A stretch of 64,000 nucleotides of DNA from an uncultured Chloroflexia bacterium (GCA_963810095.1 CAWEMM010000006.1:992001-1056000), one strand, 5' to 3'; shown: positions 27,652 through 52,542, counted from the first letter of the stretch. Notes: generated by a model not told the origin, from the letters alone. Numbers and translations: made by a program.

Positions 27652-27771
27652 GGGCACGCTTGAAGGTGGGCCCCGCGTCCCATCGCATTCATCCGCAACT
27701 CTAGGGACCAGGCTGCGTAGAGTATGGTGAACCGGGCGAGCAAGCTGGCCCGTGAAGTAGAGGAGACAATC

Positions 27772-27969
27772 ATGGAAACCAAGAAACTTTATCGCAGCAA
27801 CACGGACAAGATGGTTGCGGGTGTGTGTGGGGGCCTGGGCCAGTATTTCGGCGTCGATCCCACCCTGATTCGCCTGATCTTTGCGCTGCTGGTCGTCTTC
27901 GGCGTCGGCTCCGGGATTTTGCTGTACATCATCCTGGCGATCGTGATGCCGTTGGAACCGCTTTCGTAG
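27772..27969 (+). CDS. pspC: PspC-domain protein
   Basis: KKLYRSNTDKMVAGVCGGLGQYFGVDPTLIRL...YIILAIVMP; GAGGAG RBS. Confidence 0.92.
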   Translation: METKKLYRSNTDKMVAGVCGGLGQYFGVDPTLIRLIFALLVVFGVGSGILLYIILAIVMPLEPLS

Positions 27970-28054: not shown

Positions 28055-28585
28055 ATGACTTCTTCTCAACGTTCTGCACTTACGGGCGGCCTCGTCTTGA
28101 TCTTGCTGGGTGTCCTGTTTCTCGCCGGCCAACTGCTGCCTAATGTCTGGTCGTGGGTGACCGGCGCCAGCTGGCCTCTGGTCGTTGTCGGCGTCGGCGT
28201 CGCGCTGTTGATTATTGGCGTGCTGGCAAATGCGCCCGGTATGGCCGTGCCCGCGTGCATCGTCGGCGGGATCGGGCTGCTCCTCTACTGGCAGAACAGC
28301 ACCGGCAACTGGGAGAGCTGGGCGTACGCCTGGGCGCTGATCCCCGGTTTCGTCGGCGTCGGCACCGTCACCATGGGCCTGTGGGAGGGCAAATGGGCCA
28401 CGGTGCGCGGCGGGCTGTGGCTGATGCTCATCAGCGCGATCATGTTCGTCGTGTTCGGCTCGCTGCTCGGCGGCCTGTTCGGGGGCAACCTGGCGATCGT
28501 CGGACAGTGGTGGCCGGTCGGGCTGATCCTGCTGGGGGTGCTCAGCCTCGTCGATTACGCAACTCGGCGCCGCACCGCGGCGTGA
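28055..28585 (+). CDS. LiaF/LiaI-like (DUF5668-type) membrane protein
   Basis: Repeated GLVLILLGVLFL..WP...G hydrophobic hairpins. Confidence 0.75.
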   Translation: MTSSQRSALTGGLVLILLGVLFLAGQLLPNVWSWVTGASWPLVVVGVGVALLIIGVLANAPGMAVPACIVGGIGLLLYWQNSTGNWESWAYAWALIPGFVGVGTVTMGLWEGKWATVRGGLWLMLISAIMFVVFGSLLGGLFGGNLAIVGQWWPVGLILLGVLSLVDYATRRRTAA

Positions 28586-28597
28586 GCGGAGGTCCTC

Positions 28598-29398
28598 ATG
28601 CGCAATACGTCGGTTTTCTGGGCGGTTGTCCTGATCCTGGTGGGCCTGCTGTTCCTGCTGAATAACTTCGGCCTGCTGCCCAACTTTGGCTTCAGCATCT
28701 GGAACCTGGTCTGGCCGATCTTCCTCATTGCGCTCGGCGTCTGGTTCGTGTCGCGCACCTTCGTGCGGCCTGCGCCTGCCGAGATGGAACCGGGGAGCAT
28801 TCCGCTCGAGGGCGCAAGCCAGGCCGAAATCGAGCTGGCGCACGGGGCAGGCGAGCTGCGGGTGTCAGGAGGCGCCGGGGCCGGCGTGCTGGCCGAGGGC
28901 GTGTTCGGCGGCGGGCTGCGCTACGAGGCGAAGCACAAGGGCGATCTCCTGGACGTCGAAATGAAAATGCGCGTCGAGCCGGTGACGTTCCTCAACTGGG
29001 CGCCGGGCGGCTATGACTGGGATGTGCGGCTCAATCCGGACGTGCCCATCGAGTTGAAATGCGCGACGGGCGCGAGCCACAGCGTGCTGGACCTGCGCGA
29101 CCTGAGGGTGACCGGCTTGAAGCTGGAAACGGGCGCCAGCGCGACCGAAGTGACCTTGCCCGCGAACGCCGGACTGACCCGTGTGAAGGTGCAGGCCGGC
29201 GCCGCACGGGTGGACCTGCGCGTTCCCGGTGGGGTGGCGGCCCGCATCAAGACAAGCGGCGCGCTGGCGTCGATGGCCGTGGATGAGACGCGGTTTCCGG
29301 GGTTCGATAATCGTTACCAGTCGCCCGATTTCGACAGCGCGGCGAACCGGGTCGAGATCGAAGTGGAGACGGGCGTGGGGGCGGTGACGGTGAGTTGA
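28598..29398 (+). CDS. LiaF-TM plus toast-rack (LiaG/DUF4097-like) protein
   Basis: N-terminal FWAVVLILVGLLFLL..WP; beta-repeat units GAGELRV, TGAS..LDL, GVGAVTV. Confidence 0.75.
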   Translation: MRNTSVFWAVVLILVGLLFLLNNFGLLPNFGFSIWNLVWPIFLIALGVWFVSRTFVRPAPAEMEPGSIPLEGASQAEIELAHGAGELRVSGGAGAGVLAEGVFGGGLRYEAKHKGDLLDVEMKMRVEPVTFLNWAPGGYDWDVRLNPDVPIELKCATGASHSVLDLRDLRVTGLKLETGASATEVTLPANAGLTRVKVQAGAARVDLRVPGGVAARIKTSGALASMAVDETRFPGFDNRYQSPDFDSAANRVEIEVETGVGAVTVS

Positions 29399-35863: not shown

Positions 35864-36844
35864 ATGTCATTCAAGATGTACGGCGACCTGATGGTGTTCA
35901 GTGGCACGGCCAACCTGAACCTGGCGCGCGAAATCGGTGCGCGGCTGGGCGTCACGCTGGGCGGACGCGAGATAAAGCAGTTTCCGAACAGCAACACGTT
36001 CGTTAAGCTGGAACAAAGCGTGCGGGCCAAAGACGTTTTCGTGATTCAACCCACGTCCGCGCCGGTCAACGACAACCTGATGGAACTGCTCATCTTCATC
36101 GACACCCTGCGCCGCGATTCCGCCGGCCGCATTACCGCGGTCATTCCCTATTACGGCTACGGCAGGACCGACAAGAAGGACCAGCCGCGGGTGCCCATCA
36201 GCGCACGCCTGGTGGCCGATCTGATCGCCACCGCCGGTGCGGACCGCGTGGTCTCGGTCGACCTGCACGCCAAGCAGCTCCAGGGTTTTTTCTCGATCCC
36301 GATCGACGAACTGCCCGCGCTGGGTCTGTTCATCGACCATTTCAAGAAGCATCCCGTGCCCAATGCGGTGGTCGTCTCGCCCGACATCGGCGCGTTGGCC
36401 CGGGCGCGGAACTTCGCCGAGAAAACGGATCTACCGCTCGCCGTCATCGAGAAACGCCGTATCCTCAGCGGGGAGTACACGGAGATCTGGAACCTCATCG
36501 GCGACGTGGACAATAAGAACGTGATCATCGTCGACGATGAGATCGACACGGCAGGCACCCTCGTCAGGGCGGTCAATTTCATCAAGGATCAGGGCGCACT
36601 GGATGTGTGGGCATGCGCGACACACGCCGTTTTCTCCGGCCCGGCCGTCGAGAACATCCGCAACAGCGGGCTGTGCAAAGTGGTCGTCACCGACACAGTC
36701 GCGCTTTCGCCAGATAAGTGCCGGCGCTTGGCTGGGCAGGTCGAAGTGATCCCCGTCGCGCCGTTGATCGCTGATGTCATCTCGCGCATCCACGACGGGC
36801 GCTCGGTCGGCGAGTTGTTCGAAAGCGTAGAAAGACGGACTTAG
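35864..36844 (+). CDS. prs: Ribose-phosphate pyrophosphokinase
   Basis: [42 protein letters not shown]. Confidence 0.95.
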
Positions 36845-36845
36845 T

Positions 36846-39849
<3,004 letters not shown>

Positions 39850-39864
39850 CAAGAGTTTGGGTTA

Positions 39865-39940
39865 CACCACAAAGACACGAAGACTCAACGGTTGGCAGAG
39901 GACGCTTTTGTGATCTTTGTGTCTTCGTGTCTTTGTGGTG
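39865..39940. repeat. Inverted repeat of 9-nt units (CACAAAGAC family), copy 1
   Basis: 20-bp perfect arms CACCACAAAGACACGAAGAC / GTCTTCGTGTCTTTGTGGTG. Confidence 0.75.
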
Positions 39941-39978
39941 ACGACCGCAATCACGTCATTCACACAGGGTAGGGAGCC

Positions 39979-41355
39979 ATGCCGCCAAAACCGCGCGAAT
40001 GGATTTATCTGCCACGCCAGGCCGACCTGAGGCGTATCTTCGACGCGGCCTGCGGTATGGACTGTCTCTCGGTGGTCGGTGTCAGCAATTTGGGCAAGTC
40101 GGCAACGCTGCGGGCGCTTTGCGATCCGGGCGTGCAGGCGGAATACCTCGATGGAGACGCGCGTGACTACCTGTTCGTCTACATCGACTTCAACCAGATG
40201 CTGGAGATGAGCGACCAGGCCTTTTACGAGCTGGTGCTGCGCGCGTCGATCGAGTCGATCCGGGCGCAGAACATCAACGGCGAGGTGCTCCAGCAAGTCG
40301 AACGGGCCTACTACGGGCTGGTCGCGCCGACCAGCCCGTTCGAGGTACCGCTCAAGTTCAGCCAGGGCATGGCGGCCATCGGCGACCAGTTGGTGCAGAA
40401 AGTAGTGTTCCTGTTTGACGAGGTCGACGGCCCGGTTGCGGGCATCGACGGCCGGGTGTTCCTCAACCTGCGCGCCTTGCACGACCGCCACCCCACCGGG
40501 CTGACCTACGTCACCGCTACCAACCGCCGGCTCGAGCAGATCCGCCAGGACCCTGATGTTGCCGAGTTCGCAGAGCTATTCGAACAAGACACGCTATACC
40601 TCTCCATGCTGAACGAGGTCGAAATCAGGCAGCTCGCGACACGGTATGCGCAGGAAGAAGGCGTGACCTTCAGCGAAGAGGACCTTAAGTTTATCCGGGT
40701 GTGGACCGGGGGACACCCGGCGCTCCTCGAAATGACGTGCCGCATCCTCGGCCTGCTGACCGGCAGGCCGGTGCGCGAACCTTCGCAGGATTCGATCATT
40801 CACCGCCGCGCAACCGAGATGCTCGCCCAGGACCTGAACGTGTTGGGCGAGTGCCGCAAGATCTGGAACGATCTTTCCGAAGGCGAACAAGAAGCCCTGC
40901 TGGCAGTTGCCGCGAGCAGCGAAGGTGTGCGGGGAACCGGCTTCGACAGCGTGCTAGCCAAGCACCTGGTGGTGATGAACGGCGTCGACGCCACGATCTT
41001 CTCGCGCTGTTTCGCCGAGTTCGTCGGCCGGCAGAACGTGTCTCGCCGCACCACCAGCCAGGCCTTGCGGGTCGATCCAGACAGCGGCGAGGTATGGGTG
41101 AGCGGCGTCAAGCTGCCGACGCTCACCAACCTGGAGTACCGCCTGCTGCTGCTGCTATACGGCAAGATCGGCAAGATCGTGGACAAGTACCAGGTGGTCG
41201 AAGCCGTGTGGGGTGAGGACTACATCGACGACGTCGACGACGCCCGCATCGAGAAACTCATCAGCCGGCTCCGGCAAAAGATCGAGAAGGACCCGGCCAA
41301 CCCGAAGTATCTTTTCACCGTGCGCGGGCGGGGGTATAAGCTCGCCGAAGGCTAG
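39979..41355 (+). CDS. STAND-type NTPase with a C-terminal OmpR-like winged-helix DNA-binding domain
   Basis: Walker A GVSNLGKS, Walker B VVFLFDE, TGGHP (GxP); C-terminal LTNLEYRLL..AVWG..ISRLRQKIE.DP.NP....TVRGRGY. Confidence 0.85.
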   Translation: MPPKPREWIYLPRQADLRRIFDAACGMDCLSVVGVSNLGKSATLRALCDPGVQAEYLDGDARDYLFVYIDFNQMLEMSDQAFYELVLRASIESIRAQNINGEVLQQVERAYYGLVAPTSPFEVPLKFSQGMAAIGDQLVQKVVFLFDEVDGPVAGIDGRVFLNLRALHDRHPTGLTYVTATNRRLEQIRQDPDVAEFAELFEQDTLYLSMLNEVEIRQLATRYAQEEGVTFSEEDLKFIRVWTGGHPALLEMTCRILGLLTGRPVREPSQDSIIHRRATEMLAQDLNVLGECRKIWNDLSEGEQEALLAVAASSEGVRGTGFDSVLAKHLVVMNGVDATIFSRCFAEFVGRQNVSRRTTSQALRVDPDSGEVWVSGVKLPTLTNLEYRLLLLLYGKIGKIVDKYQVVEAVWGEDYIDDVDDARIEKLISRLRQKIEKDPANPKYLFTVRGRGYKLAEG

Positions 41356-41393
41356 TTGCCTTGCCACAAAGCAGGGCTTAAGATGGTACAATG

Positions 41394-41440
41394 CGCCGGC
41401 AGGCCGCGAAAGGGTCGCGAAACCTGCCGGCGTTTGTTTT
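41394..41440 (+). terminator. Hairpin with U-tract between the regulator and pspA
   Basis: CGCCGGCAGG...CCTGCCGGCG-TTTGTTTT, immediately after TGnTACAAT at 41384-41392. Confidence 0.55.
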
Positions 41441-41566
41441 CGTACTAGACGCTGATAGATCGCTTGTCAGTTTTCTGTCCGCCGCCGGTCAAGCGCGGGC
41501 AGGCGAACCGGCTTATCATCCCAACCATAGGCTCTAGAGTCCATTTCGATCCCAGGAGGCGTACGC

Positions 41567-42256
41567 ATGGCAACCCTTCTCGACAAGGTACAAACTCTGA
41601 TTTCGGCCAACCTGCATTACCTGGTTGACCAGTCACTTAAGCAAAACTCGATCGCGGTCATCAATCAATATATCCGCGAAGTCGAGAACAACCTGGACGA
41701 CCTGACCGAGGCCACGGCAACCGTGGGCGGCAACGTCAAGACCGTGCGTCGCAAGTACGAGGAACTCCAGGCTAAGTCGGCCGAGCTCGACCGCAATATC
41801 GACCTGTTCCTCCGCGAAGGCCGCGAGGACCTGGCGCGGGCCGCGCAGAGCAAGTACAACTCGACGCAGCGCCTGACTGAGACCTACGCGCAGCAGCTCG
41901 AACAGATGCAGCGCGAGTACCAGAATCTCATCGACGCCCGCCTCAAGCTCGAAGCCAAGCTGACCACCATCAAGCAGGAGCGCGAGGAGCTCGAAGCCCT
42001 GCTCGAGCTGGCGAAGTCGAAGGAAATCACCGCCAAGACGATCAAGTCGCTCGACGACCTGTCGGGCGTGGGCGACGCCGACGTGGCCCGCATTGCAGAC
42101 TCCATCCGCCAGCGCCTGGACCGGGCCTCGGCCGAGAGCGAGATGCGCGCGGCCAGCCTGGATAAGCAGATGGACGACGTGCTCGACAAGGGCGAACTCG
42201 ACGGCCAGTTGGCATCCCGCAAGGCGCGCCTCGGGCTCCAACAGAAGGCCGGCTAA
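41567..42256 (+). CDS. pspA: PspA/IM30 (ESCRT-III superfamily) protein 1
   Basis: N-terminal amphipathic helix LLDKVQTLISANL..LVD, QYIRE.E, GREDLARAA, long coiled coil, C-terminal L..RKARLG. Confidence 0.88.
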   Translation: MATLLDKVQTLISANLHYLVDQSLKQNSIAVINQYIREVENNLDDLTEATATVGGNVKTVRRKYEELQAKSAELDRNIDLFLREGREDLARAAQSKYNSTQRLTETYAQQLEQMQREYQNLIDARLKLEAKLTTIKQEREELEALLELAKSKEITAKTIKSLDDLSGVGDADVARIADSIRQRLDRASAESEMRAASLDKQMDDVLDKGELDGQLASRKARLGLQQKAG

Positions 42257-42268
42257 GGAGCGCGCAGA

Positions 42269-42300
42269 CAAACCAGTTTTCTCCGATGAAACCTGGTTTG
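42269..42300. repeat. REP-like palindrome (AAACCTGGTTT type)
   Basis: CAAACCAG..CTGGTTTG; related to 2838..2872. Confidence 0.45.
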
Positions 42301-42313
42301 TGAAGGAGCAGCT

Positions 42314-42997
42314 ATGGCATCTCTCTTAGAAAAAGTCCGGGTGTTGGTCTCTGCGGACATGAATCGTCTCGTCGACCGCGGGCTCGGTGGGACAAGCCAG
42401 GAGGCTTTGTACCAGCACCATGTTCGCGAGCTGCAAACGCTGCAGGAACAGCTTGCCGGCCAGCTCGTATCGCTGCGGGCCGAGCTTAACCAGATGCAGA
42501 AACGCAGCGCGGAGCAGCAGGCCCTGGTGGCGAAGCAAGACGCGGAGGTCGATCAACTCCTGCAGGCCGGGCTTCAGGATGATGCGCTTGCCGCGCAGGA
42601 CCGGCTGAACCAGAGCCGCACGGCCGCGGCCGATGCCGCGGGCCGGGTGGAGCGGTTGGAAGCCGAGTACAAGGAAATGGCCGACACGAAGGCCCAGCTC
42701 GACCTGCGGATCGACACCCTTGTCCGGAACGAGCCCGAAGTCAGGAGCATGCTCGGGCTCGCCCGCGCCAAGCAGCTCACGGCCGCCGCACGGCAGTCGC
42801 TCGACGACCTGTCGGGCACGGGGGACCCGGACGCGGAACGGGTAGTGGGCGCCATCCGGACCCGCTTGGCCGAGGCCGAGGCCCAGCTGCAGGAACTTGA
42901 GCAGCGCGGGCTGGCCCACGGCGAAACCCCCGACGTGCTGAAACGTAAAGAACTAGAGGCGCAGCTGGAAGCGCGGAAGACGCGGCTGGGCCTGTAA
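42314..42997 (+). CDS. PspA/IM30 protein 2 (diverged paralogue)
   Basis: MASLLEKVRVLVSADM..LVD; SLDDLSG.GD.D shared with copy 1; ends in RKTRLGL. Confidence 0.82.
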   Translation: MASLLEKVRVLVSADMNRLVDRGLGGTSQEALYQHHVRELQTLQEQLAGQLVSLRAELNQMQKRSAEQQALVAKQDAEVDQLLQAGLQDDALAAQDRLNQSRTAAADAAGRVERLEAEYKEMADTKAQLDLRIDTLVRNEPEVRSMLGLARAKQLTAAARQSLDDLSGTGDPDAERVVGAIRTRLAEAEAQLQELEQRGLAHGETPDVLKRKELEAQLEARKTRLGL

Positions 42998-43069
42998 CTC
43001 GAGCTTTACCCGGGCCGGCCGCCGCGGCGGCCGGCCCGGGGGTATCGTGGAGGTTGTGAAGGAGACCCT

Positions 43070-44416
43070 ATGTCCCTTGCACCCATTATTGTCGCACTCG
43101 TCCTCGGCGTGGTCGCGCTTGTGGCAGCCATCTATTTCTTTGCCGCAGGCAGCGGCAAGCGCACGCAAGCCGTGTTTTTCCTCGTCGTTGGGCTCGTCCT
43201 GCTGGTCGTCGGCGGCGCGCTCGGCTGGCAGAGCTACAGCCAACAGAATCCGGGCGGCACGGCCGCGCCGTTGATCGCAGCCCCCAAGGGGCCGGTCCAG
43301 GTGCGCGTGCTCTCGGCGCTGCCCGTGGAGCCGTGGGTGCGCGAGGCGGCCAAAGCATTCAACGCGACGAAGCCAACCCAGGATGGTCAGCCGATCGAGG
43401 TCGTGGTGACCGCCCAGGATGGGCTGAGCGCGCTGGGCAAGTTCGACCGCGACGACTTCGGCTCGCTGGGCGACAAGACGCGCGACCAACTGACGCCCGA
43501 CGAGCTCAAGCGCCTGGAGACCACGTTCCCCACCGTCTGGATTCCGGATAGCCGCTACCTGGTGGAGCTGGCAAACGCCTCCTATAAGGAACGCATCGGC
43601 CGCGACGTCTTCCTGACGGATGGCGAGTACCGCGCCCGCCCGACTGCCGTCTCGCTGTTCGTCTGGGGCATCTACCAGAGCCGGGCCAACGTGCTCGAGC
43701 AGAAGTTTGGCGAGATCAACTGGAAGGCGATCCACGACGCGGCCATCGCGAAGGGTGGCTGGCCCGAGCTGGGCGGCGACAAGGGCTGGGGCTTCTTCAA
43801 GCTGGTGGTGCCCAACCCGCGGCGCAATGTGGGCGGTCTCGCCGCCATGATTGCCGCGGCCGGCGAATACTACGGCCGGACAAACATCTCGGTCGACGAT
43901 GTGACCAACCCTGACTTCCAGAAGTGGCTCGGCGAGTTGATGGGCTCGCTGACCGACGTCAGCGGCGCGAGCGCGTACACCGCAGAGGATTTCGCCCTGT
44001 TCGGCTATTCGGCAGGCGACGGCGGGCAGTTGTTGGAGAGCGACCTGCTCAAGAACATGGAGGGCATCCGCACCCGCTGGTCTGACCCGCTGGTGGTGCG
44101 CTACCCCGAATACGTAACGTGGTTCGACTTCCCGTACACGATTTGGGTCGGCCCAGAGACGACCGCGGCCGAGAAGAACGCGGCGCTCCAGTTCCAGCAG
44201 TTCCTGCTGACACCCGAGATGCAGAAGCTGGCGGTGCAGTCGGGTCTGCGGCCGGTGACCAACGACGTAAACGTGACCGAGGGCGACAACCTGTTCACCA
44301 AATGGCAGAGCCAGGGCGTTGCGTCCGTGGTGCCCCGCACCACACGTATGGCCTCGCCGAGCCGTGACGTGCTGCTCGCGCTGCTGCGCTGGTTTGACTT
44401 GAACGTGGGGAAGTGA
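43070..44416 (+). CDS. Membrane-anchored extracellular solute-binding-like protein
   Basis: Two N-terminal TM helices; PTVWIPDS, YES-like motif LLESDL, YP...WFDFPY, FLLTPEMQK.AV.SGLRP. Confidence 0.75.
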   Translation: MSLAPIIVALVLGVVALVAAIYFFAAGSGKRTQAVFFLVVGLVLLVVGGALGWQSYSQQNPGGTAAPLIAAPKGPVQVRVLSALPVEPWVREAAKAFNATKPTQDGQPIEVVVTAQDGLSALGKFDRDDFGSLGDKTRDQLTPDELKRLETTFPTVWIPDSRYLVELANASYKERIGRDVFLTDGEYRARPTAVSLFVWGIYQSRANVLEQKFGEINWKAIHDAAIAKGGWPELGGDKGWGFFKLVVPNPRRNVGGLAAMIAAAGEYYGRTNISVDDVTNPDFQKWLGELMGSLTDVSGASAYTAEDFALFGYSAGDGGQLLESDLLKNMEGIRTRWSDPLVVRYPEYVTWFDFPYTIWVGPETTAAEKNAALQFQQFLLTPEMQKLAVQSGLRPVTNDVNVTEGDNLFTKWQSQGVASVVPRTTRMASPSRDVLLALLRWFDLNVGK

Positions 44417-44417
44417 C

Positions 44418-46176
44418 ATGAGCGCGGACAATAACCGCTCGCGATCCAACCGGCGCAGCGGCCAGCCCACCCCGCAGCGCGGCATCGCCGTCGCGGCCGC
44501 GTTGGCCGGCGTCGTGCTCTTGTGCATCTGCGTGTCGATCGTCCTGATACTCTTCCCGACCAAGCGCACGAGCACACCCGGGGCCGAAGCACCCCAGCCG
44601 GATGCCAAGAATCCGACCTTGGTCATCGCACACTCGCCCGAGAAGGCGGCGCTGATCAAGACACTCAGCGACGGGTTCAACGCGCAGCGCCAACGCACGC
44701 CCGATGGCCAGACGATGGCGATCCGCCTGCTCGAAATGACGCCGGAGGAGATGGTCAACCGCACGCTGGCCGGCGAAAGCGGCTTCCAGGCCATCACGCC
44801 CGACTCGTCGCTCTGGCTCGACCAACTAAATCGCCGGTGGGCGCAGAACCAGCCCGCGCCGGCTTCGGGCGGCGCCATTGCTCAAAGCCTGACCGGCGAG
44901 CCCGTGCGCTACGCGATCAGCCCGATCGTGATTGCGGCCTGGGAAGATGTGGCGCGCGGGCTCGGCTGGCCGGACCAACCGGTGAGCTGGAGCACGCTTG
45001 CAGAGCCGGGCGCAGAGCGACCCGAATTTCCGCTGGAGCCACCCGAGCACCGCGTACGCCAGCGGCCTCCTGGCGACCCTCGCCGAGTTCTATGCCGGCG
45101 CAGGGGTCCAGCGGGGCTTGACCGCCGACATGGCACAGGATCAGAAGACCGTCGACTACGTCAGCGCGATCGAGAAGACGGTCAAGTACTATGGCGAGGC
45201 CGAGCTGGCGGTGATGCAGCGGATCAGCCAGGACCGCAAGGCGCTCGACGCGTTCGTCGTCTCCGAGCAGCTCGTAACCGCCTTCAATACGGGCAAGTTC
45301 GGCAACCAGGCCGACAAATTGGTCGCACTCTACCCGGCCGAAGGCACCTTCTGGGCCGACCACCCGCTCGCGCTGCTCGAGACGCCCGCGCTCACCGATA
45401 ACCAGCGGCGGACGTTCCAGGCCTTCCGCGAGTACCTGGCCAGCCCGGAAAGCCAGAAGCAGGTGCTCCAGGCCGGCTACCGGCCGGCAGACCTGGGCCT
45501 CTCGCTTACCGGCGAAGGGTCGCCGCTGACGGCGGCAAACGGCGTCGACCCGAAACAGCCGCAAACGACGCTGCAACTGCCGGCCGCAGACGTCGTCCAG
45601 GTCGTCCAGAATGTGTGGGCCCTGACCAAGCGGAAGACCAACGTATTCCTGGTGGTCGACACGTCCGGATCGATGCAGGGCAGCAAGCTCGACGGCGCAA
45701 AGTCGGCCCTGCGCACCTTCCTGCAGCAGATCCCCAGCGACCAGGAGAAGGTCGGCCTCGTCGAATTCAACACGGGGATTGCCAACATTATCGAGCTGGA
45801 CACACTGGCCAACAACCGCGCGACGCTGAACGGGACGGTGGACGGCCTGCGGGCGAACGGCAACACCGCACTGCTCGATGCGGTCCGCACTGCCTATAAC
45901 CGGCTGCAGCAAACGGGCGATCCGGAGCGTATCAACGCCATCGTCGCCATGACGGACGGCCGCGAGAATGCCTCGATGGTGAGCCTGCGCCAACTCGTCG
46001 ACGAAATCCGCCAGGGCAACCAGAACGTGCCCGTGGTGATCTTCTGCATCGCATACGGCAAGGACGCCGATTACGAGGTGTTGCAGGCGATTGCGAATGC
46101 AAGCGGCGGCCAGGTGCGCGAAGGGAACGAAGAGACCATTCGTGAGCTGTACAAGATCCTTTCGAGCTACTTCTGA
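44418..46176 (+). CDS. TM-anchored solute-binding domain plus vWA fusion protein (apparent +1 frameshift at ~44998)
   Basis: AHSPEK, ITPDSSLW, SPIVIA, HP..YASGL, YPAEGTFWADHP; MIDAS motif VDTSGSM..NTAL..MTDGREN. Confidence 0.82.
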
Positions 46177-47069
46177 TGACTGAATCAGTTCGCGATCGCC
46201 TCGAAAAGGACGTCGGCAAGGCGCTTTTGCGCAACGCGGTCTTCGGCTGGGAGAGCGCAGTGATGGTCGGCGGTACGGTGGCTGCGGCCGCCCTTCTGCC
46301 GAACGTGATTCCGATTATTCCCTGGTTCCTGTGGGTGCTGGTCGGCATCGTCGGCGAGACCGCGGTAATCATCACCCGGCTAACAGACAAGGCCGAGCAG
46401 CAGAAGGCGCTCGAGGGCCTGTTCCGGGAGAAGTACAGCATCTCCGGCATCCGTGACCGCAATCTGCAGGAGAAGCTCAAGGAAGCGGAGCAGTACCGCC
46501 AGCGGATTCAAGCCGTGGTCGACCAGCACAGAGAAGGCGTGCTCCGTGACCGGCTCAAGCGCACCACCGACCAGGTCTACGACTGGATCGCCAACATGGT
46601 CACCCTGGCCCGGCGCCTCGACGTGTACCGCTCGGACCCGATCCTGAGGCGCGACCTGGAGCATGTGCCGCGGGAGGTGGAGCGGCTTAAGGCCCGGCTG
46701 TCAGTGGAGCGTGACCCGCGGGTCCGCGAGCAGCTGAACACGACGCTCGACTCGAACCAGCAGCAGATTCAGTCGCTTAGCGAGCTGCGGGGCCGCATGG
46801 ACCGGGCCGATCTGCAGCTCGATCATTCGCTGGCGGCGCTAGGGACCGTCTACTCGCAGCTGCTCCTGATCGGCACCAACGAGGTCGACTCGGACCGCGC
46901 AGACCAGCTACGGGACGACATTCGTGGCGAAGTCCTCGCCTTGAAGGACATCGTCGACTCGCTGAACGAAGTCTACGACGCGACGTCGGCCGCGTCGCAG
47001 ACGGCGCTGTCGCCGGAACAGACCGAGGCCGCCCGGCGCCTGCAAAAAACGGATCGCGCAGACAGGTAA
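46176..47069 (+). CDS. Membrane-anchored coiled-coil protein
   Basis: Overlapping TGATG junction with the vWA gene; two TM helices followed by ~200 aa of heptad-rich helix. Confidence 0.75.
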   Translation: MTESVRDRLEKDVGKALLRNAVFGWESAVMVGGTVAAAALLPNVIPIIPWFLWVLVGIVGETAVIITRLTDKAEQQKALEGLFREKYSISGIRDRNLQEKLKEAEQYRQRIQAVVDQHREGVLRDRLKRTTDQVYDWIANMVTLARRLDVYRSDPILRRDLEHVPREVERLKARLSVERDPRVREQLNTTLDSNQQQIQSLSELRGRMDRADLQLDHSLAALGTVYSQLLLIGTNEVDSDRADQLRDDIRGEVLALKDIVDSLNEVYDATSAASQTALSPEQTEAARRLQKTDRADR

Positions 47070-47078
47070 GGACTGAAT

Positions 47079-47134
47079 AACACAAAGCCACAAAGACACG
47101 CAGACAAAGCAGGGTGTCGTTGTGTCTTTGTGTT
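47079..47134. repeat. Inverted repeat of 9-nt units (CACAAAGAC family), copy 2
   Basis: AACACAAAGCCACAAAGACAC ... TTGTGTCTTTGTGTT. Confidence 0.65.
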
Positions 47135-47146
47135 GAAGGAGCATCC

Positions 47147-48295
47147 ATGAGGCACACGATTCTCGCTGTTGCTCTGGTAATCATTGCCGTGATCGTCGCG
47201 GCCTGCGGCGGCGGAGGAGCGGCCGCGCCGACAAAGGGCGACGCGACCGTTTACGTCGCCGGCCCGCTGTCGGGATTCCAGGCCAATACCGGCCAGACGG
47301 TCGCCGGCGGCGTCCGCCTGATGGCCGAGCAGTTGAACCGGTCGGGCGGATTGTTGGGTTACAAGGTCAAGGTGGTTGCACTCGACGACGAGGCGGACTC
47401 GGATGTGGCGCTGACCGTTGCGGGCAAAATCAAGGACGCGGTGGACAGCGGCGAAAAGGTCGTCGGGATCATCGGGCATCCGAATTCCGGCCAGACCGAG
47501 GCCGCGATGGGGGTGTACAAGGACCTGAATGTGGTCGTCATCACGCCCACGGCGTCTGAAGTCTCGCTGACGAAGCAAGGGTACCGCAACTTCTTCCGGG
47601 TCAACGCGGCGAACGATCTGCAGGCCAAGACCGGCGCGGAATACCTGGTCAACAAGCTGGGTGCAAAGAAGATCGCAGTGCTCTTCAACGACGACACATA
47701 CGGCAAGGACCTGGGTCAGCGGGTGGCCGACGATCTCAAGGGGCTCGGCGCGGACGTGCCTGTGTCGCTGCAGGTCAAGGTCGAGCAGAACCGCTTTCCC
47801 GACGAGGTCGCCAAGGTCAAGCAGGCGGGCGTCGACGCCATCTATTACGCGGGTTACGAGGTCGAGTGCCCGTACCTGCGCGCCGACCTGCGCGATGCGG
47901 GCCTCAGCAACCTGACGTTTATGGCCTCCGACGGCTGCTTCCTGGCGGCCACCATCGACAACTCGGATGGCGCCGCCGAAGGCATGTACGTGACGGGCTT
48001 CGCGCCCAGCCCGAAGACCTCCGTCGACCAGCAGTGGGTGTCGGCATACCAGGCCGTCGAGTTCCGCAATCCTGACACGTATTCCGTCAATGGCTACAGC
48101 GCCATGCAAGTGCTGGCCGAGGGCATCAAGAAGGCCGGCTCGCTGGACGGCCGCAAGATCGAGGACGCCATTCGCCAACTTGATATCAAGACCCCACTGG
48201 GCGAAGTGCAGTACCAGGACAACGGCGACTTGAAGGCCGCCCAGATTTACATCTTCCAGGTGAAGGACGGGCAGTTCACTCAGGTGGCGCCGTAG
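47147..48295 (+). CDS. LivJ/K-type branched-chain amino-acid-binding lipoprotein (orphan)
   Basis: Lipobox VAAC; GPLSG, LDD, IGHPNSG, FFRV, DTYG, YSA, TPLG. Confidence 0.88.
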   Translation: MRHTILAVALVIIAVIVAACGGGGAAAPTKGDATVYVAGPLSGFQANTGQTVAGGVRLMAEQLNRSGGLLGYKVKVVALDDEADSDVALTVAGKIKDAVDSGEKVVGIIGHPNSGQTEAAMGVYKDLNVVVITPTASEVSLTKQGYRNFFRVNAANDLQAKTGAEYLVNKLGAKKIAVLFNDDTYGKDLGQRVADDLKGLGADVPVSLQVKVEQNRFPDEVAKVKQAGVDAIYYAGYEVECPYLRADLRDAGLSNLTFMASDGCFLAATIDNSDGAAEGMYVTGFAPSPKTSVDQQWVSAYQAVEFRNPDTYSVNGYSAMQVLAEGIKKAGSLDGRKIEDAIRQLDIKTPLGEVQYQDNGDLKAAQIYIFQVKDGQFTQVAP

Positions 48296-48390
48296 TCAAC
48301 CGCGCTCGAAGCGTGTAAAAAGGCAAGCCCACGCAGTGCGTCGGCTTGCCTTTTTACACTTAGAAAATACTACCTGCTATACTGTCTCGC

Positions 48391-49669
48391 ATGACCGACA
48401 ACAACTACACTCTACTGGCTGTGTTTGCCCACCCCGACGACGAAATCGGCGCGGGATCGACGTTCGCCCACTACAGCGACGCGGGCGTGCGGATTGTGCT
48501 GGCGTGCGCGACGCGCGGGGAAGCGGCGACCATCTTCTGCGAGGACTGCGCCACCCCCGAGACGCTCGCGGACGTCCGCACGATTGAGCTGCAGTGCGCC
48601 TGCGACCACCTGGGCATCCAGGAGCTGCGCTGGCTCGACTGGCCGGACGGCGGGATCAAAGACCTGCCGCGAGCCGAGGCGGTGCGCCAGGTCGTCGAGC
48701 TGATTCGCGACGTGCATCCTACTATCGTCGTGACCCACCCCGCGAACGGCCTCTACCCGCATCCCGATCACCTCGCCGTCTGGGAGATCGTGCGAACGGC
48801 GTTCGACGCAGCGGGCGACGAGCAGCAGTATGGAGATGCGGGCCCCGCCTGGAAGCCGCTGCGGCTTTTCACGCGGGCCATGCCCCAGAGCCTCTTCGAG
48901 CGCGCGCCAGGGCTGCAAGAGTTCAGGGTCGAGTTGAACGGCGAGCTGCTGCCATTCATGGGCACGCCCGACGACGAGATCGACGTCACCATGCACGTGG
49001 GCCCCACGGTCGCCCGGCGCATGGCTGCGTGGGCTTGCCACCGCTCACAGCATAACCCGAAGGGCTTTTCGACGGTCATGCCCGACGGTCTGCGTGAGGA
49101 GATGGCGGCGAACGAGCAGTTCTTGCTGGCGACCGGCGCACCGCTGCCTGCGGGCACCAGCGACGATCTCTTCGCCGGTCTCGAAGAAGGCGACACCTAC
49201 TTGGTCGGCAGCGCCGGCGCAGCCCCCGACGCCGCGCCTGCCGAGCAAACGGAAGAGGCGTCTCCAGTCTCGCCGGCCTACCTCAGGCTGGTCCTCGCGG
49301 AGCTCACGCGGCATATCACGTTGTCCGAGGCGCTCAAGCTCTACCAGCACAACCCCCAGGAAGCCAAGCAGAGCAGCCTGTACCACCAACTGGCCGGCAC
49401 GGAGCAGGAAATCCTCTATCGCCTGGCGCGCACGCTGCGGCGGCTGGACGCGGGCGCGGGCAAGATCGAGCCGGATCCGGCCATCATGCGCGAGGCGCGG
49501 CGGCGCAACCGGCCCGAGCCGCGGCGCGAGTTCCTGCTAAACCGCATGGAGGTGGCGTACGGGCGCCTGCAAGACAACGGACGCAGCGCGACGGTCGCCG
49601 AAGAGCGCGAGGCGTGGGATGAGCTGGCCGCGCTGGCGCGGCGGATCGGTCGAGCTGCTGAAAGAGTAA
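48391..49669 (+). CDS. PIG-L/MshB-family N-acetyl deacetylase with an extra C-terminal helical domain
   Basis: VFAHPDDE, ATRGE, HPDH, ACHRSQ; removing one G near 49648 gives the ending ..RIVELLKE* at 49669. Confidence 0.8.
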
Positions 49670-49800
49670 GACCGCGTAAAACAAACCCGGCCCTGCATCA
49701 AGGCTTGCCTTGCCTGCAGAACCGGGTTGTCCCGCCTGGGTAAATGACCGGGCTCGCGTCGCCGGGGGAACTGCGGCGCGAGGCCCGGCCCGTGATATCG

Positions 49801-51627
49801 CTAGATGATCTCCAGTTCCTTCAGCTTGCTCTCGGGCACCACGCCGTCGACCCAGCCGCGCTCCGTGTAGTACTCGGCCTTCATCTCGTCCAGCTCACAC
49901 ACCTGGCCCTTCGAACCGCCGAAGGTCGACGGCTCGGTCAGGAAGCGCGCCGGCAGGCTGTCATCCTTCCCGGTGAAGCCGTTCAGGTTATTGTAGTACC
50001 GCTCGAGGTTATACACCCGCTCGCCCACCTGGAAGAGGTAGTCGGCCGTGCAGGGCGCGCCGGTGATGGCCGCAAACTGCGCCGCGAAGCCGTCCATCGA
50101 CTCGGAGAAGGTGGCGAACTTGCAGATGTCCAGGCAGTCGGTAACGGCGTGGACATTCTGGAAGATCATGATCAGCTTGCCCTTGCCCTTGTAGGCCAGC
50201 GGATCGACGACGTCGGTGGGACCGAGCACGTTGCCGGCCACTTCGGCCGCCGGCGTGTAACCGCGCAGGTGACACGCGCCGCGATTCGAGGTGGCATAGC
50301 CGATGCCCATGCCCTTGATGCCGCGCGGGTCATAGGCGGGGATGCCCTGGTCTTTCACCGCCATGGCGAGCTCCGGATGGCCGAGCTTCTTCGCGGCCTT
50401 GCCTGTGCCCTCTGCCAGGATGTCGCCGATCCCTTCGCGGAACGCCACCTTGCGCCCCATCTCGACCATGGCATGTGTGTCGCCCCAGGCGAGCGGCTCC
50501 GCTGCATAGCCGCACTCGGAGTACTCCATGTACATTGCCAGCACGGTGCCGATTTCGATCGCGTCGTAGCCGTAGTCATTCGCCCGGTCGATCATGTACG
50601 CCACCGACGCAATGTCGTCGTTCCCGCAGAACGCGCCCACAGACCAGGCCGGCTCGTACTCCACGCTCTCCATCCGCACCTTGAACGGGCCTTCCGTGAC
50701 CTCGACCTCTTTCTTGCAGGCCACAGGGCAGGCGTGACACGTGGGGTCTTCCACCAGGATCGTCGCCTTCACGTGCTCGCCCGACAGCAGTTCCGCACGG
50801 TCGCCAAACGAAGTGATCTGGCCGTTGCGCGTGGGCAGTCCGCCCATGCTGCTCGTGATGTTCATCAGCACGTTCGTGCCATAAACCGACAGCCCGCCCT
50901 TGCGCGGCGAGGTCAACACTCGCTCGTCAGAGAGCTGCGCCAGGGCCACTTTCTGTGCTTCCCGGAATGCTTCCCGATCTACGGGCCGCGGCCGGTCGGC
51001 ATGCTTGCCCTTGATGACGATGGCCTTCAGGTTCTTGCTGCCGGCCACTGCGCCGGTGCCGCCGCGACCCGACGAGCGGTCGTTCTCGTTCATCCAGCAG
51101 GCGAACTTCACTAGGTTCTCGCCCGCCGGCCCGATGCAGATGATGCTCACGTCCTTCTCGCCGTGCCGCGCCTGCAGCGTCTTGATGGTCTGGTGCACGC
51201 CCATGCCCCACAGGTCTGTCGCGGGCTGGAACGTGATCTCGTTGTTTTCCACGATCGCGTACACCGGTTCGGGCGCCTTGCCCTTGAACACGATGCCATC
51301 CAGCCCGGCCCACTTCAGCCGTGCGCCCGACCACCCGCCGTGATGCGAGTCGGTCACCGTGCCGGTCAGCGGCGACTTGGTCACAAACGCAATGCGGCCG
51401 CTCAGGTTGACATCGGTGCCGCTGAGCGGTCCCGTCATCAGGGCCAGGATGTTCTCCGGAGAGAGCGGATCGACCAGCGGGCCGTTGTCAAACACGTACT
51501 TCACGCCCAAGCCGCGCGCACCCACGTACAGCCGCGCGTCTTCGTCCGCAATGGGCTTGTATTCGACCGCACCGTCGGTCAGGTCGACCCAAGCCACCCG
51601 ATTCTTATAACCACCCAAGTTCATCAT
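49801..51627 (-). CDS. aor: Aldehyde:ferredoxin oxidoreductase (W/Mo-bispterin)
   Basis: KSPLTG, GRGGTGAV.GSKNLKAI, CHACPVAC, EYE, YDPRG, RGACH, DCL.ICKF; GGAGG RBS. Confidence 0.93.
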   Translation of the reverse strand: MMNLGGYKNRVAWVDLTDGAVEYKPIADEDARLYVGARGLGVKYVFDNGPLVDPLSPENILALMTGPLSGTDVNLSGRIAFVTKSPLTGTVTDSHHGGWSGARLKWAGLDGIVFKGKAPEPVYAIVENNEITFQPATDLWGMGVHQTIKTLQARHGEKDVSIICIGPAGENLVKFACWMNENDRSSGRGGTGAVAGSKNLKAIVIKGKHADRPRPVDREAFREAQKVALAQLSDERVLTSPRKGGLSVYGTNVLMNITSSMGGLPTRNGQITSFGDRAELLSGEHVKATILVEDPTCHACPVACKKEVEVTEGPFKVRMESVEYEPAWSVGAFCGNDDIASVAYMIDRANDYGYDAIEIGTVLAMYMEYSECGYAAEPLAWGDTHAMVEMGRKVAFREGIGDILAEGTGKAAKKLGHPELAMAVKDQGIPAYDPRGIKGMGIGYATSNRGACHLRGYTPAAEVAGNVLGPTDVVDPLAYKGKGKLIMIFQNVHAVTDCLDICKFATFSESMDGFAAQFAAITGAPCTADYLFQVGERVYNLERYYNNLNGFTGKDDSLPARFLTEPSTFGGSKGQVCELDEMKAEYYTERGWVDGVVPESKLKELEII

Positions 51628-51657
51628 TCACCTCCATGTGATAGGGTAATAGGCAAC

Positions 51658-51703
51658 AAAAAGCCGGGGACCGCTATGCGAGATTCACATAGCGGTCCCC
51701 GGC
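51658..51703 (-). terminator. Strong intrinsic terminator inside the aor 5' leader
   Basis: 16-bp perfect stem GCCGGGGACCGCTATG/CATAGCGGTCCCCGGC followed by TTTTTGTT on the minus strand. Confidence 0.8.
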
Positions 51704-51866
51704 GTGCTCAACGACCTGAGGAGTCTTGCCAACGCGACGGCTGGCGATTCCCCGGCCCGGCGGCTGTTGGCGCGGGAACGGGAGCGGATGTCTCATTCAG
51801 AAATGTTCGGGCGACACCAAAAGACGTAAGGTACCGTGAATAACGTAAAGGGGCTTACAATCTGCA

Positions 51867-51895
51867 ATTATAACGGCCGCATTCTGGTCGCGCAA
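51867..51895 (-). promoter_or_regulatory. Probable aor promoter with an overlapping imperfect palindrome
   Basis: TTGCGC-17 bp-TATAAT on the minus strand; TTACAAT-N5-ATTATAA at 51855-51873. Confidence 0.55.
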
Positions 51896-51940
51896 ATCCG
51901 GAAAGGGGGGCTGCACCTCGGCGATTGGACGGCTAAGAAC

Positions 51941-52300
51941 TCACACCGGCGGAAAGTGGCGGTCGAACTCGCTCTGCAGGGCATCGTCGAGCGCGGCGGC
52001 GAAGGCGTTAAAGCGGGCGATCAAGTCGCGGCCGAAAGCCGTGACGCTGGCCCCGCCGCCATGCGTGCCACCCACGTGACGCTCCACCAGGCGCGCACCG
52101 AGCCCTTCTTCCATTTCGTCCAGCCTCTCCCAGGCGAGACGGTACTGGACGCCGAGGCGCTCCGCGGCCGCGCTGATCGATCCGGTCGCCTCGATGGCTT
52201 CCAAGAGCTGGACCCGCCAGCGGCTCAAGACTACGCGCTGGTTGCGCTCGATCCACAAGTTGGCGTGGGGCGCCAGCGCGGTAACTGGCTCGTCAATCAT
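51941..52300 (-). CDS. ModE-family winged-helix regulator (DNA-binding domain only)
   Basis: LLEAIEATGSISAAAERLGV.YR.AW..L..ME..LG..LV....GG..GGGA.VT. Confidence 0.88.
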   Translation of the reverse strand: MIDEPVTALAPHANLWIERNQRVVLSRWRVQLLEAIEATGSISAAAERLGVQYRLAWERLDEMEEGLGARLVERHVGGTHGGGASVTAFGRDLIARFNAFAAALDDALQSEFDRHFPPV

Positions 52301-52542
52301 GCTGCACCTTCATTCTTGCTACAGCTTCATTCATACTGCACTTTCATTTATCCTGCACGTTGACCCACTTTTACCGGCATGCTAGAATTCGCGCAAGTCG
52401 GTGGGGGGTCGCGGAGAGACACGGTAACGCGACCCGTTTCCATAGAGTGTAACCCCGCTGCGAGAACTGAATCTAAACGCAGGCCGGCCGCGCGCGGTGC
52501 GTCGATGCTGCGTGGGCCGTTTCAGAGAGGAGGGTCTCGGAT

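Follow-up and report, generated by a model that had tools for sequence, protein, structure and literature searches.

A candidate Psp-type envelope-stress cluster in uncultured Chloroflexota, linking pspA to a two-helix membrane protein and transporter-less binding proteins

Introduction

A 64,000-nucleotide stretch of DNA from an uncultured Chloroflexia bacterium (GCA_963810095.1, CAWEMM010000006.1:992001-1056000; hereafter, the window) carries, at positions 39979-48295 of the + strand, a cluster of seven co-oriented genes. They encode a putative regulator, two homologues of the membrane-remodelling protein PspA, two anchored proteins resembling solute-binding proteins (SBPs), of which the second is fused to a von Willebrand factor A (vWA) domain, a transmembrane coiled-coil protein (TMcc) and a LivJ-like lipoprotein. 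The question raised by this locus is whether so unusual an assortment constitutes a single system built around PspA and, if so, what binding proteins are doing in it. The recruitment and regulation of PspA and its relatives, which resemble the endosomal sorting complex III required for transport (ESCRT-III), are little settled beyond the proteobacteria, the Firmicutes and the mycobacteria.

An earlier note, made from the sequence of the window, had proposed that these genes form a non-canonical Psp system. The comparisons described here bear this out in one central respect, namely, that the cluster is conserved as a unit around PspA, both in a set of 18 orthologous loci and in a survey of 80 more widely sampled ones. 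We hold with moderate confidence that it is a Psp-type envelope-stress operon, comprising an AAA+/STAND-like (STAND, signal transduction ATPases with numerous domains) winged helix-turn-helix (wHTH) activator, one or more PspA effectors, a new membrane adaptor and an extracytoplasmic input made up of SBP, vWA and amino-acid-binding proteins. The locus offers a partner, TMcc, that is found next to pspA without exception and, for what would be a new type of Psp regulator, a defined candidate operator; as all of the parts are cloneable, these ideas could be tested in a heterologous host, although the organisms themselves are uncultured.

The gene cluster and its conservation

Open reading frames (ORFs) of the window were scanned with the Pfam hidden Markov models (HMMs), and matches were judged against the curated gathering cut-offs. 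The genes of the cluster, with their transmembrane (TM) segments and, where present, a metal-ion-dependent adhesion site (MIDAS), are as follows:

39979..41355, +, regulator: P-loop NTPase, helical/winged-helix arm and OmpR/PhoB-type wHTH (Trans_reg_C, 6.4e-19)
41567..42256, +, PspA1: PspA/IM30 (ESCRT-III-like) protein, putative effector (PF04012, 1.9e-21)
42314..42997, +, PspA2: divergent PspA paralogue, found in part of the lineage only (35% identity to PspA1)
43070..44416, +, SBP1: membrane-anchored, predicted extracytoplasmic type-2 solute-binding-like domain (TM segments 6-24 and 34-52)
44418..46176, +, SBP-vWA fusion: single N-in TM segment, SBP_bac_11-like domain and vWA domain with a complete MIDAS; frame-broken
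46176..47069, +, TMcc: hairpin of two TM segments and a ~230-aa helical domain, predicted to be cytoplasmic (hydropathy and AlphaFold2 (AF2) model)
47147..48295, +, LivJ-like protein: orphan LivJ/LivK-type amino-acid-binding lipoprotein (Peripla_BP_6, 1.1e-54; the first possible start is a GTG at 47114)

The order PspA1, SBP1, SBP-vWA and TMcc is kept in all 18 orthologous loci, a set that spans the host's own family and six other families of the class, and the LivJ-like gene comes next in 16 of them; PspA2 is confined, within this set, to the family of the window. For a broader view, a TMcc profile was searched against one genome per GTDB species, and the best 80 of 123 confirmed stretches were surveyed for the other genes, a locus being counted as evaluable for a given gene if it had enough flanking sequence or if the gene was found. 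These 80 loci belong to uncultured Chloroflexota (Anaerolineae/Anaerolineales, Caldilineales and Thermoflexales), apart from one 3-kb contig labelled Gammaproteobacteria; public records of the host's relatives likewise read Anaerolineae or Chloroflexi bacterium. The occurrence of each gene at the evaluable TMcc loci was:

pspA upstream of TMcc on the same strand, 62/62
SBP-vWA, 66/74
SBP1, 61/66
LivJ-like gene downstream of TMcc, 66/70
regulator, 44/59
PspA2, 20/61

The co-linearity of the cluster is, by these sequence comparisons, far beyond chance, because it is kept both in the 18 fetched loci and across the 80-locus survey. In particular, the linkage of pspA to the SBP and vWA genes, on which the proposal of the earlier note had been made to depend, is conserved among relatives, and the predicted genetic tie between pspA and the two-TM coiled-coil protein holds in every locus where it could be assessed. 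Additionally, seven loci have a minimal form, consisting of regulator, PspA and TMcc, in which the gap between pspA and TMcc is 11-58 nt and the binding-protein genes are absent.

TMcc as the link between PspA and the binding proteins

TMcc is a protein of 297 aa, for which a hydropathy scan gives two hydrophobic segments (30-48 and 47-65) with basic flanks. Its AF2 model is all-helical, with a predicted local distance difference test (pLDDT) score of 84.9 and a predicted template modelling (pTM) score of 0.74. No Pfam family scored above its cut-off, and neither a specific NCBIfam family nor a PDB sequence relative was found; as judged by these searches, TMcc belongs to no known family. It is by no means rare, however: a full HMM search retrieved 934 representative clusters at E<=1e-3, 272 of them at E<=1e-30.

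Some of these matches carry the C-terminal domain of TMcc in other contexts. Among ten longer matches that were scanned, four have it C-terminal to a Ser/Thr kinase (in the two that were inspected, long hydrophobic stretches separate the kinase from the TMcc domain), and one of the kinase fusions also carries a TCAD9 'ternary complex associated domain'; in one further protein it follows a BTAD regulator of the Streptomyces antibiotic regulatory protein (SARP) type and two TM segments, and in another it follows pentapeptide repeats and a two-TM domain. There are also forms in which, by eye, four apparent TM helices and then a basic linker precede the domain. The BTAD fusion through two TM segments and the four-TM forms with their basic linker support the placing of the helical domain of TMcc in the cytoplasm, and the domain looks like a reusable, membrane-proximal signalling domain that lacks a Pfam model. 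The fusion proteins are P0340, P0373, P0387, P0304, P0264 and P0367. The host genome itself encodes a second protein with the TMcc domain (L062, ORF 787-2133; G000:C6:1824063-1824611), which is 34% identical and has two hydrophobic stretches, judged by eye, and a long low-complexity linker; it is not among the genome's PspA matches.

The converse search started from SBP-vWA. In a sample of 401 genomes of the phylum, 49 have an SBP-vWA match at E<=1e-60, and 14 of the loci were fetched. Four of these are distant versions of the Psp-linked cluster: PspA is recognisable in L035 (by tblastn) and in L036 (Pfam, 7.7e-18), and TMcc is matched in L036-L038, not in L035. The remaining 10 have SBP-vWA, most of them with an adjoining SBP1-like gene, and gave no tblastn match to PspA, TMcc or LivJ. 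In three of them (L040, L046 and L048), a protein of ~245 aa is encoded directly 3' of the SBP1/SBP-vWA dyad; it has, by eye, two hydrophobic stretches at its N-terminus, followed by a long polar part, and the three are ~40% identical among themselves. Profile comparison shows these proteins to be homologous to TMcc (hhalign probability 97.9%, E 6.2e-13, 181 columns). Triads of SBP, SBP-vWA and a TMcc homologue thus occur in another class, and they lie far from PspA: in G262 and G270 (assemblies of one or three contigs), the PspA matches found (E<=0.001) are >1 Mb from the triad, and in G413, the match is on another contig.

Taken together, TMcc is linked to pspA without SBPs in the minimal loci and to SBP and SBP-vWA without pspA in the triads; therefore, TMcc would be the shared hub joining PspA and the SBP module, with the window as a merged form. 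We regard this as the strongest argument for a connecting role of TMcc. Ten ORFs located 3' of PspA-free dyads matched unrelated families (MM_CoA_mutase, HisKA/HATPase and SnoaL) or nothing in Pfam (several of these ORFs being in the wrong frame), and V4R, TPR and a hybrid kinase are neighbours of SBP-vWA paralogue loci. On the same contig as the window there are three more SBP-vWA paralogues in tandem (L028, G000:C6:1885135-1893197), which have ~30% identity to the window gene and neighbours with no Pfam match.

PspA1, PspA2 and the classical Psp and Lia partners

PspA1 is a clear member of PF04012, scoring 77.1 bits against a cut-off of 33.9 over positions 2-218 of the 220 in the profile. 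PspA2, taken alone, falls below that cut-off (PspA_IM30, 1.9e-4, 21.5 bits); it is, nevertheless, related to PspA1 over its full length (228 aa, E 2e-37). Since the 6.1-Mb genome (a metagenome-assembled genome of 16 contigs, 88.5% complete) has no PspA_IM30 match apart from these two, the locus is, as far as the assembly tells, the organism's Psp effector locus. The 'twin PspA' of the earlier note is correct for this window and does not extend to the system at large, as the duplication is limited to part of the lineage. A complex prediction for PspA1 with residues 70-297 of TMcc returned a score of 0.00, which is 'no answer' and weighs neither for nor against an interaction.

The Pfam scan found no PspB/PspC or LiaI/LiaF genes within 39979-48295, and the cluster is, in consequence, not a classical Psp or Lia operon. 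The genome as a whole does have such partners: genes for PspC, LiaI/LiaF-TM and LiaF/Toastrack proteins are present in the same window, 12 kb upstream. They encode a PspC-domain protein (27724-27969, +; PF04024, 2.3e-27), a LiaI/LiaF-TM protein (28055-28585, +) and a LiaF-like protein with LiaF-TM and Toast_rack_N/LiaF_C domains (28598-29398, +), and beside this set is a gene for an HtrA-type protease with PDZ domains (24439-26694, -). The distance of the set from pspA is ~17 kb in the same-genus genome G002 and 49 kb in G024, and in G012, the two are on separate contigs.

The regulator and a candidate operator

The regulator has 458 aa, with an N-terminal P-loop domain (AAA+/STAND-like) and a C-terminal wHTH. 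The latter is an OmpR/PhoB-type winged helix (Trans_reg_C, 68.3 bits against a cut-off of 26.2), and Foldseek places the last 100 residues of the AF2 model (pLDDT 86.4) close to the effector domains of VicR/YycF (TM-score ~0.83-0.85); there is no receiver domain, and sensor repeats are likewise absent. A PDB sequence search matched the wHTH part alone. The Walker A (GxSNxGKS) and Walker B (DE) motifs are invariant in 37 homologues. The designation of this protein as a STAND regulator is upheld only at the level of the fold, where Foldseek relates the NTPase to ORC2 of the ORC/Cdc6 group (1w5t), archaeal AAA+ proteins (2fna and 2qen) and the nucleotide-binding leucine-rich repeat receptor (NLR) Roq1 (7jlv), with TM-scores of 0.35-0.5. 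In the family model, nSTAND2 stays below its cut-off (3.1e-4, 20.6 bits against 24). Precomputed assignments give AAA_16, nSTAND1 or nSTAND2 for some homologues of the regulator.

Between the regulator gene and pspA1, two features stand out:

41388..41445, +, terminator-like hairpin and U-run after the regulator gene (-33.3 kcal/mol, z -4.56, 0/200 shuffles as good)
41465..41493, +, candidate operator: three direct GTC-core repeats in an 11-bp phase (TGTCAG-N6-GTCSG-N6-GTCAWG)

Because a strong hairpin with a U-run directly follows its gene, the regulator is probably its own transcription unit, apart from that of pspA. The triple GTC repeat is followed, ~20 nt downstream, by a -10-like box (TATCAT, 41514-41519). 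The 211-bp spacer before pspA1 contains one invariant block in all 11 family loci, TGTCAG-N6-GTCSG-N6-GTCAWGC, and then TATnAT. The 6.1-Mb genome has a single copy of the exact site; allowing two mismatches adds 3 sites, against 1 for a reversed control. In 14 of the 18 orthologous loci, a looser form of the pattern precedes pspA, and alignment reveals variants in two more. One locus of genome G018 (L031, 3094-3411) has tandem arrays in this spacer, (GGTGACAY)n upstream and (CCCAATA)n before the start codon, both of which flank the conserved block.

Among the 80 surveyed loci, 61 have a PspA match with at least 160 nt upstream of it, and these were scanned for the phased triple (the other 19 were dropped). 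It was found in 30 of the 44 loci with a regulator gene upstream and in 2 of the 17 without, the background expectation being 0.005 per 263 nt; this co-occurrence makes it plausible that the P-loop-wHTH protein is, as first suggested, a dedicated regulator of the cluster. OmpR/PhoB-type proteins usually bind to phased direct repeats that overlap the -35 region. The regulator would bind the triple site and would activate, rather than repress, pspA transcription. A simple promoter and terminator scan found no sigma-70 consensus; the hairpins described in this work came from folding.

The pspA unit contains three further hairpins:

42268..42300, +, stem-loop between pspA1 and pspA2, no U-run (-21.6 kcal/mol, z -3.27)
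43009..43040, +, GC-rich stem-loop between pspA2 and SBP1, no U-run (-46.2 kcal/mol, z -4.27)
48313..48359, +, strong terminator-like hairpin following the LivJ-like gene (-36 kcal/mol, z -5.31, 0/200 shuffles as good)

The last of these is likely to be the 3' end of the operon, and the second is a possible attenuator or processing site. The predicted transcription unit would run from pspA1 through the LivJ-like gene, and transcription may be attenuated beyond the effector genes.

The surface proteins

SBP1 has two hydrophobic segments and a basic loop, and no PDB sequence relative was found for it. Its resemblance to the SBP domain of SBP-vWA is only distant (E 6e-9 across 99 aa), and NCBIfam offers no specific family for SBP1 or for the N-part of SBP-vWA. 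The latter protein starts with a basic N-terminus and one TM segment. Its C-part just exceeds the cut-off for SBP_bac_11 (6e-6, 26.6 bits against 25) and contains a vWA domain (PF00092, 2.4e-18, 67.4 bits against 23.8). The MIDAS residues, comprising the D-T-S-G-S stretch (D-x-S-G-S) and the further T and D, are all nearly invariant in 17 orthologues. A search at E<=1e-10 returned 1979 proteins; in public records, SBP-vWA homologues bear only the names 'VWA domain-containing protein' or 'Ca-activated chloride channel homolog'. The LivJ-like protein scores 186.8 bits against the Peripla_BP_6 cut-off of 31.7 and is clearly related to amino-acid-binding proteins of solved structure, with PDB relatives 3ipc (2.9e-39) and 1usg (2.2e-37), and 3ip5 and 1z15 in the range 1e-35 to 3e-39; it carries a lipoprotein-type signal with a lipobox-like VAAC. 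Given the TM segments of SBP1 and SBP-vWA and the lipoprotein signal of the LivJ-like protein, the binding domains of all three are expected on the outer side of the membrane.

The domain scans of the window found no ABC (ATP-binding cassette) permease or ATPase gene in the cluster, in keeping with the earlier reading of three binding-protein genes without an adjoining transporter. Moreover, among the strong Peripla_BP_6 matches of the genome, the LivJ-like gene alone has no BPD_transp_2 permease match nearby, the nearest on the contig being ~187 kb away; the others have BPD_transp_2 matches within a few kb.

The seven co-oriented genes and their coordinates stand as the earlier note had them, and so do two close junctions: SBP1 and SBP-vWA are separated by a 1-nt spacer (TGAcATG), and SBP-vWA overlaps TMcc at TGATG. 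On the sequence, both point to translational coupling. The single open frame assigned to SBP-vWA does not stand, as it is two frames in this copy. The N-part (TM segment and N-lobe) runs from 44418 to ~44996, and the C-part (44998-46176) is in the next frame; alignment of the DNA with five intact relatives locates one extra T at ~44998/44999, and a sixth relative, the same-genus genome G001, has a different indel near the same site. When aligned with the orthologues, the two pieces meet seamlessly. Most relatives have a single ORF of ~560-630 aa around the match (there are shorter frames in G000 and G001 (396 aa), plus cut or broken copies), and these intact single ORFs indicate that the fusion of SBP and vWA is real and that the window copy is frame-broken. 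The break is probably an assembly indel error, because secA (36846-39849, +; the sole copy in the assembly) is likewise split over two frames, near 37800-37900, several further genes of the host genome give split matches, and G001 has many breaks in this very locus. Contigs from four sequencing runs over 36800-48300 were short and shallow, none of those shown bridges 44998, and no indel was reported at that position.

A proposed mechanism and its alternatives

How might these parts work together? In the envelope-stress operon that we favour, every physical interaction, the ligands and the direction of signalling are inferred. The NTPase-wHTH activator, produced from its own unit, would bind the three GTC repeats, spaced one helical turn apart, at the pspA promoter, in its -35 region. 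The effectors would be one or two PspA/IM30 proteins, possibly as a PspA1/PspA2 heteropolymer, and TMcc would serve as the membrane adaptor that docks or releases them, by analogy with PspB/C, LiaI and mycobacterial PspM. Between pspA and TMcc, most lineages have an inserted accessory module of two anchored SBP-like proteins, one of them with a MIDAS-competent vWA domain, which the orphan LivJ-type lipoprotein would complete. These transporter-less surface proteins may constitute a receptor or tether, reporting an envelope cue to TMcc through their membrane helices.

A bolder version, which we advance tentatively and consider rather unlikely as a whole, holds that TMcc founds an undescribed and widespread adaptor family, whose helical cytoplasmic domain would control the PspA polymers and whose two-TM hairpin would take its input from the SBP/vWA/amino-acid receptor, that this receptor triggers PspA-mediated repair from the outside in, and that PspA restrains the AAA+/STAND-wHTH activator in the manner of PspF. 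In Escherichia coli, PspA holds the activator PspF in check. Were this version true, the TMcc domain, fused as it is to Ser/Thr kinases and SARP-type regulators, would be a general module for signalling membrane state.

A number of observations weigh against the envelope-stress interpretation. The regulator is not obligatory at the locus, being absent from 15 of the 59 evaluable loci, and the triple GTC site is missing from 14 of the 44 regulator-bearing ones, including all of the minimal loci that carry a regulator. The PspC and LiaF-like genes elsewhere in the window could encode the true partners of PspA. On the extracytoplasmic side, SBP1 is weakly SBP-like (SBP_bac_8/11, ~7e-4, 19.7-19.8 bits against cut-offs of 25-27), the triads unlinked to PspA may mean that the surface module serves a function unrelated to membrane repair, and a genuine frame break in SBP-vWA would leave this strain with a defective module.

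Also weighing against it, TMcc has no specific fold match and falls short of the models of both candidate partner families. Its fold has no Foldseek match in the PDB at E<=1e-3, and a likeness to F-BAR, BAR and designed-bundle structures (VIA Z ~11) is within the noise expected of helical proteins. An identity with PspM (Rv2743c) is rejected, as PF25587 matches neither the locus itself nor 10 orthologues at E<=10; a language-model search gives a Rv2743c-family cluster as the nearest named one (score 0.92), which is a lead only. XpaC (PF10112, Halogen_Hydrol) is rejected as well, at 21.6 bits against a cut-off of 29.8 (2.4e-4, positions 4-103 of 191 in the profile). Sub-threshold PF10112 matches do recur, in 3 of 10 TMcc orthologues, in 10 of the 120 homologues listed and, at 19.3 bits, in the genome search, which suggests that the N-terminal part of TMcc is distantly related to XpaC.

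The alternative that fares best, albeit one that we consider unlikely, is that the surface trio is structural or adhesive: the vWA domain, through its MIDAS, would tether membrane to wall, or cell to cell within a filament, with TMcc as a cytoplasmic anchor and PspA co-expressed only because both would serve the integrity of the envelope. MIDAS-containing vWA domains typically bind protein ligands, and the MIDAS of SBP-vWA is both complete and conserved; the triads far from PspA matches in other genomes, and the strong stem-loops that part the pspA genes from those downstream, point the same way. It is harder to reconcile this explanation with a gene order that includes pspA and is kept across orders, with the placement of the SBP genes exactly between pspA and TMcc rather than beside them, or with the presence of an amino-acid-binding-type SBP, which would be an odd structural part.

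That the binding proteins serve ABC importers encoded elsewhere, and lie beside pspA through inherited synteny, strikes us as improbable. With 54 BPD_transp_2 matches in the genome, among them fragments of split genes, spare importer partners are conceivable. The LivJ-like protein is plainly related to transport SBPs, and one distant locus (L038) has an ABC_tran/ABC-3 pair downstream. Nevertheless, the window cluster showed neither permease nor ATPase, and the LivJ-like gene, unlike the genome's other strong Peripla_BP_6 matches, does not adjoin a permease. Furthermore, the TM anchors of SBP1 and SBP-vWA, and the fusion of one of them to a vWA domain, are unusual for transport SBPs, and the linkage persists across several orders (61-66 of 66-74 loci), together with translational coupling.

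Finally, an NTP-dependent conflict (anti-phage) system, in which a STAND-like switch and vWA/SBP surface sensors would have PspA guard or remodel the membrane on infection, is highly improbable, since the STAND/NLR-like NTPase fold and the fusion of the TMcc cytoplasmic domain to Ser/Thr kinases, once with TCAD9, are set against a PADLOC result of coiled-coil noise only (JetC/LmuB on PspA1/PspA2), the lack of an effector enzyme, and a single-copy, vertically inherited cluster in synteny with secA and housekeeping genes, unlike the patchy distribution of defence islands.

Comparison with known systems

The envelope-stress operon proposed here is closest in layout to the mycobacterial ClgR-PspA-PspM-PspN system (Rv2745c-Rv2742c), in which a local regulator, a PspA homologue and a two-TM partner are likewise encoded together (PMC11237479, PMC7619361). 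The differences are, however, considerable: the regulator of the window is an AAA+/STAND-like NTPase-wHTH protein and mycobacterial ClgR has a Cro-like HTH; the window has no PspN/DUF3046, and TMcc misses the Rv2743c model, PF25587; and SBP1, SBP-vWA and the LivJ-like protein have no counterpart there. PspM itself is described as confined to mycobacteria and corynebacteria, with no homologue reported outside the Actinobacteria in the comparative survey (PMC11237479).

The E. coli PspF-PspABC operon has its activator beside pspA, together with small membrane partners (PMC11237479). The window shares with it an ATPase-containing transcription factor next to pspA, here a putative activator. PspF, an AAA+ protein that binds sigma-54 enhancers, has a Fis-type HTH; in the window, by contrast, the NTPase is ORC/STAND-like and is joined to an OmpR-type wHTH, and the promoter has phased repeats and a TATnAT box. 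PspB and PspC are, moreover, outside the window operon, the PspC gene being 12 kb off at a distance that is not conserved. In the LiaIH-LiaGFSR system of Bacillus subtilis, LiaH, a PspA homologue, is co-transcribed with its membrane anchor LiaI, and stem-loops grade expression. The cluster resembles it in encoding a PspA homologue with a membrane partner and in its stem-loops; it differs in that Lia regulation is two-component and involves no SBP or vWA proteins, and in that TMcc lacks a LiaI-LiaF-TM domain, the LiaI/LiaF-like genes of the window being separate (28055-29398). A last comparison is with XpaC, which is encoded with TelA in Firmicutes and shares with TMcc a two-TM N-terminus followed by a cytoplasmic helical part. 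The cluster has no TelA partner, and the conserved C-terminal domain of TMcc lies outside the XpaC model. In Enterococcus faecium, xpaC-telA is reported to be upregulated and linked to daptomycin resistance (PMC6811118).

The type of regulator, the membrane partner and the surface trio all differ from those of the mycobacterial, E. coli and B. subtilis systems. In the main text of the comparative Psp study (PMC11237479), the terms 'von Willebrand', 'Halogen' and 'vWA' were not found, and its 'solute-binding' passages concern other contexts; its supplements and web app may list such neighbourhoods. The text of a 2025 review (PMC7619361), supplements aside, was negative for vWA, solute and Chloroflex. 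Literature searches for SBP or VWA proteins with PspA found no relevant paper beyond the broad Psp survey, and those for PspA/ESCRT-III gene neighbourhoods found none naming Anaerolineae. The locus is thus the first hint that we have found of an extracytoplasmic binding-protein/vWA input to a Psp system.

Neighbouring genes

Downstream of the terminator-like hairpin that follows the LivJ-like gene, the window encodes a deacetylase of the PIG-L family, extended by a long stretch at its C-terminus (48391-49743, +); within the host's family, many loci have a PIG-L gene after the cluster. The next three ORFs (49744-51114, 51163-51843 and 51836-52363, all +) have no Pfam or NCBIfam match. On the other side, the regulator or pspA has secA immediately upstream and on the same strand at 19 of the 45 evaluable loci, some of which have no regulator; this adjacency is possibly a link of secretion stress to PspA, or else plain synteny.

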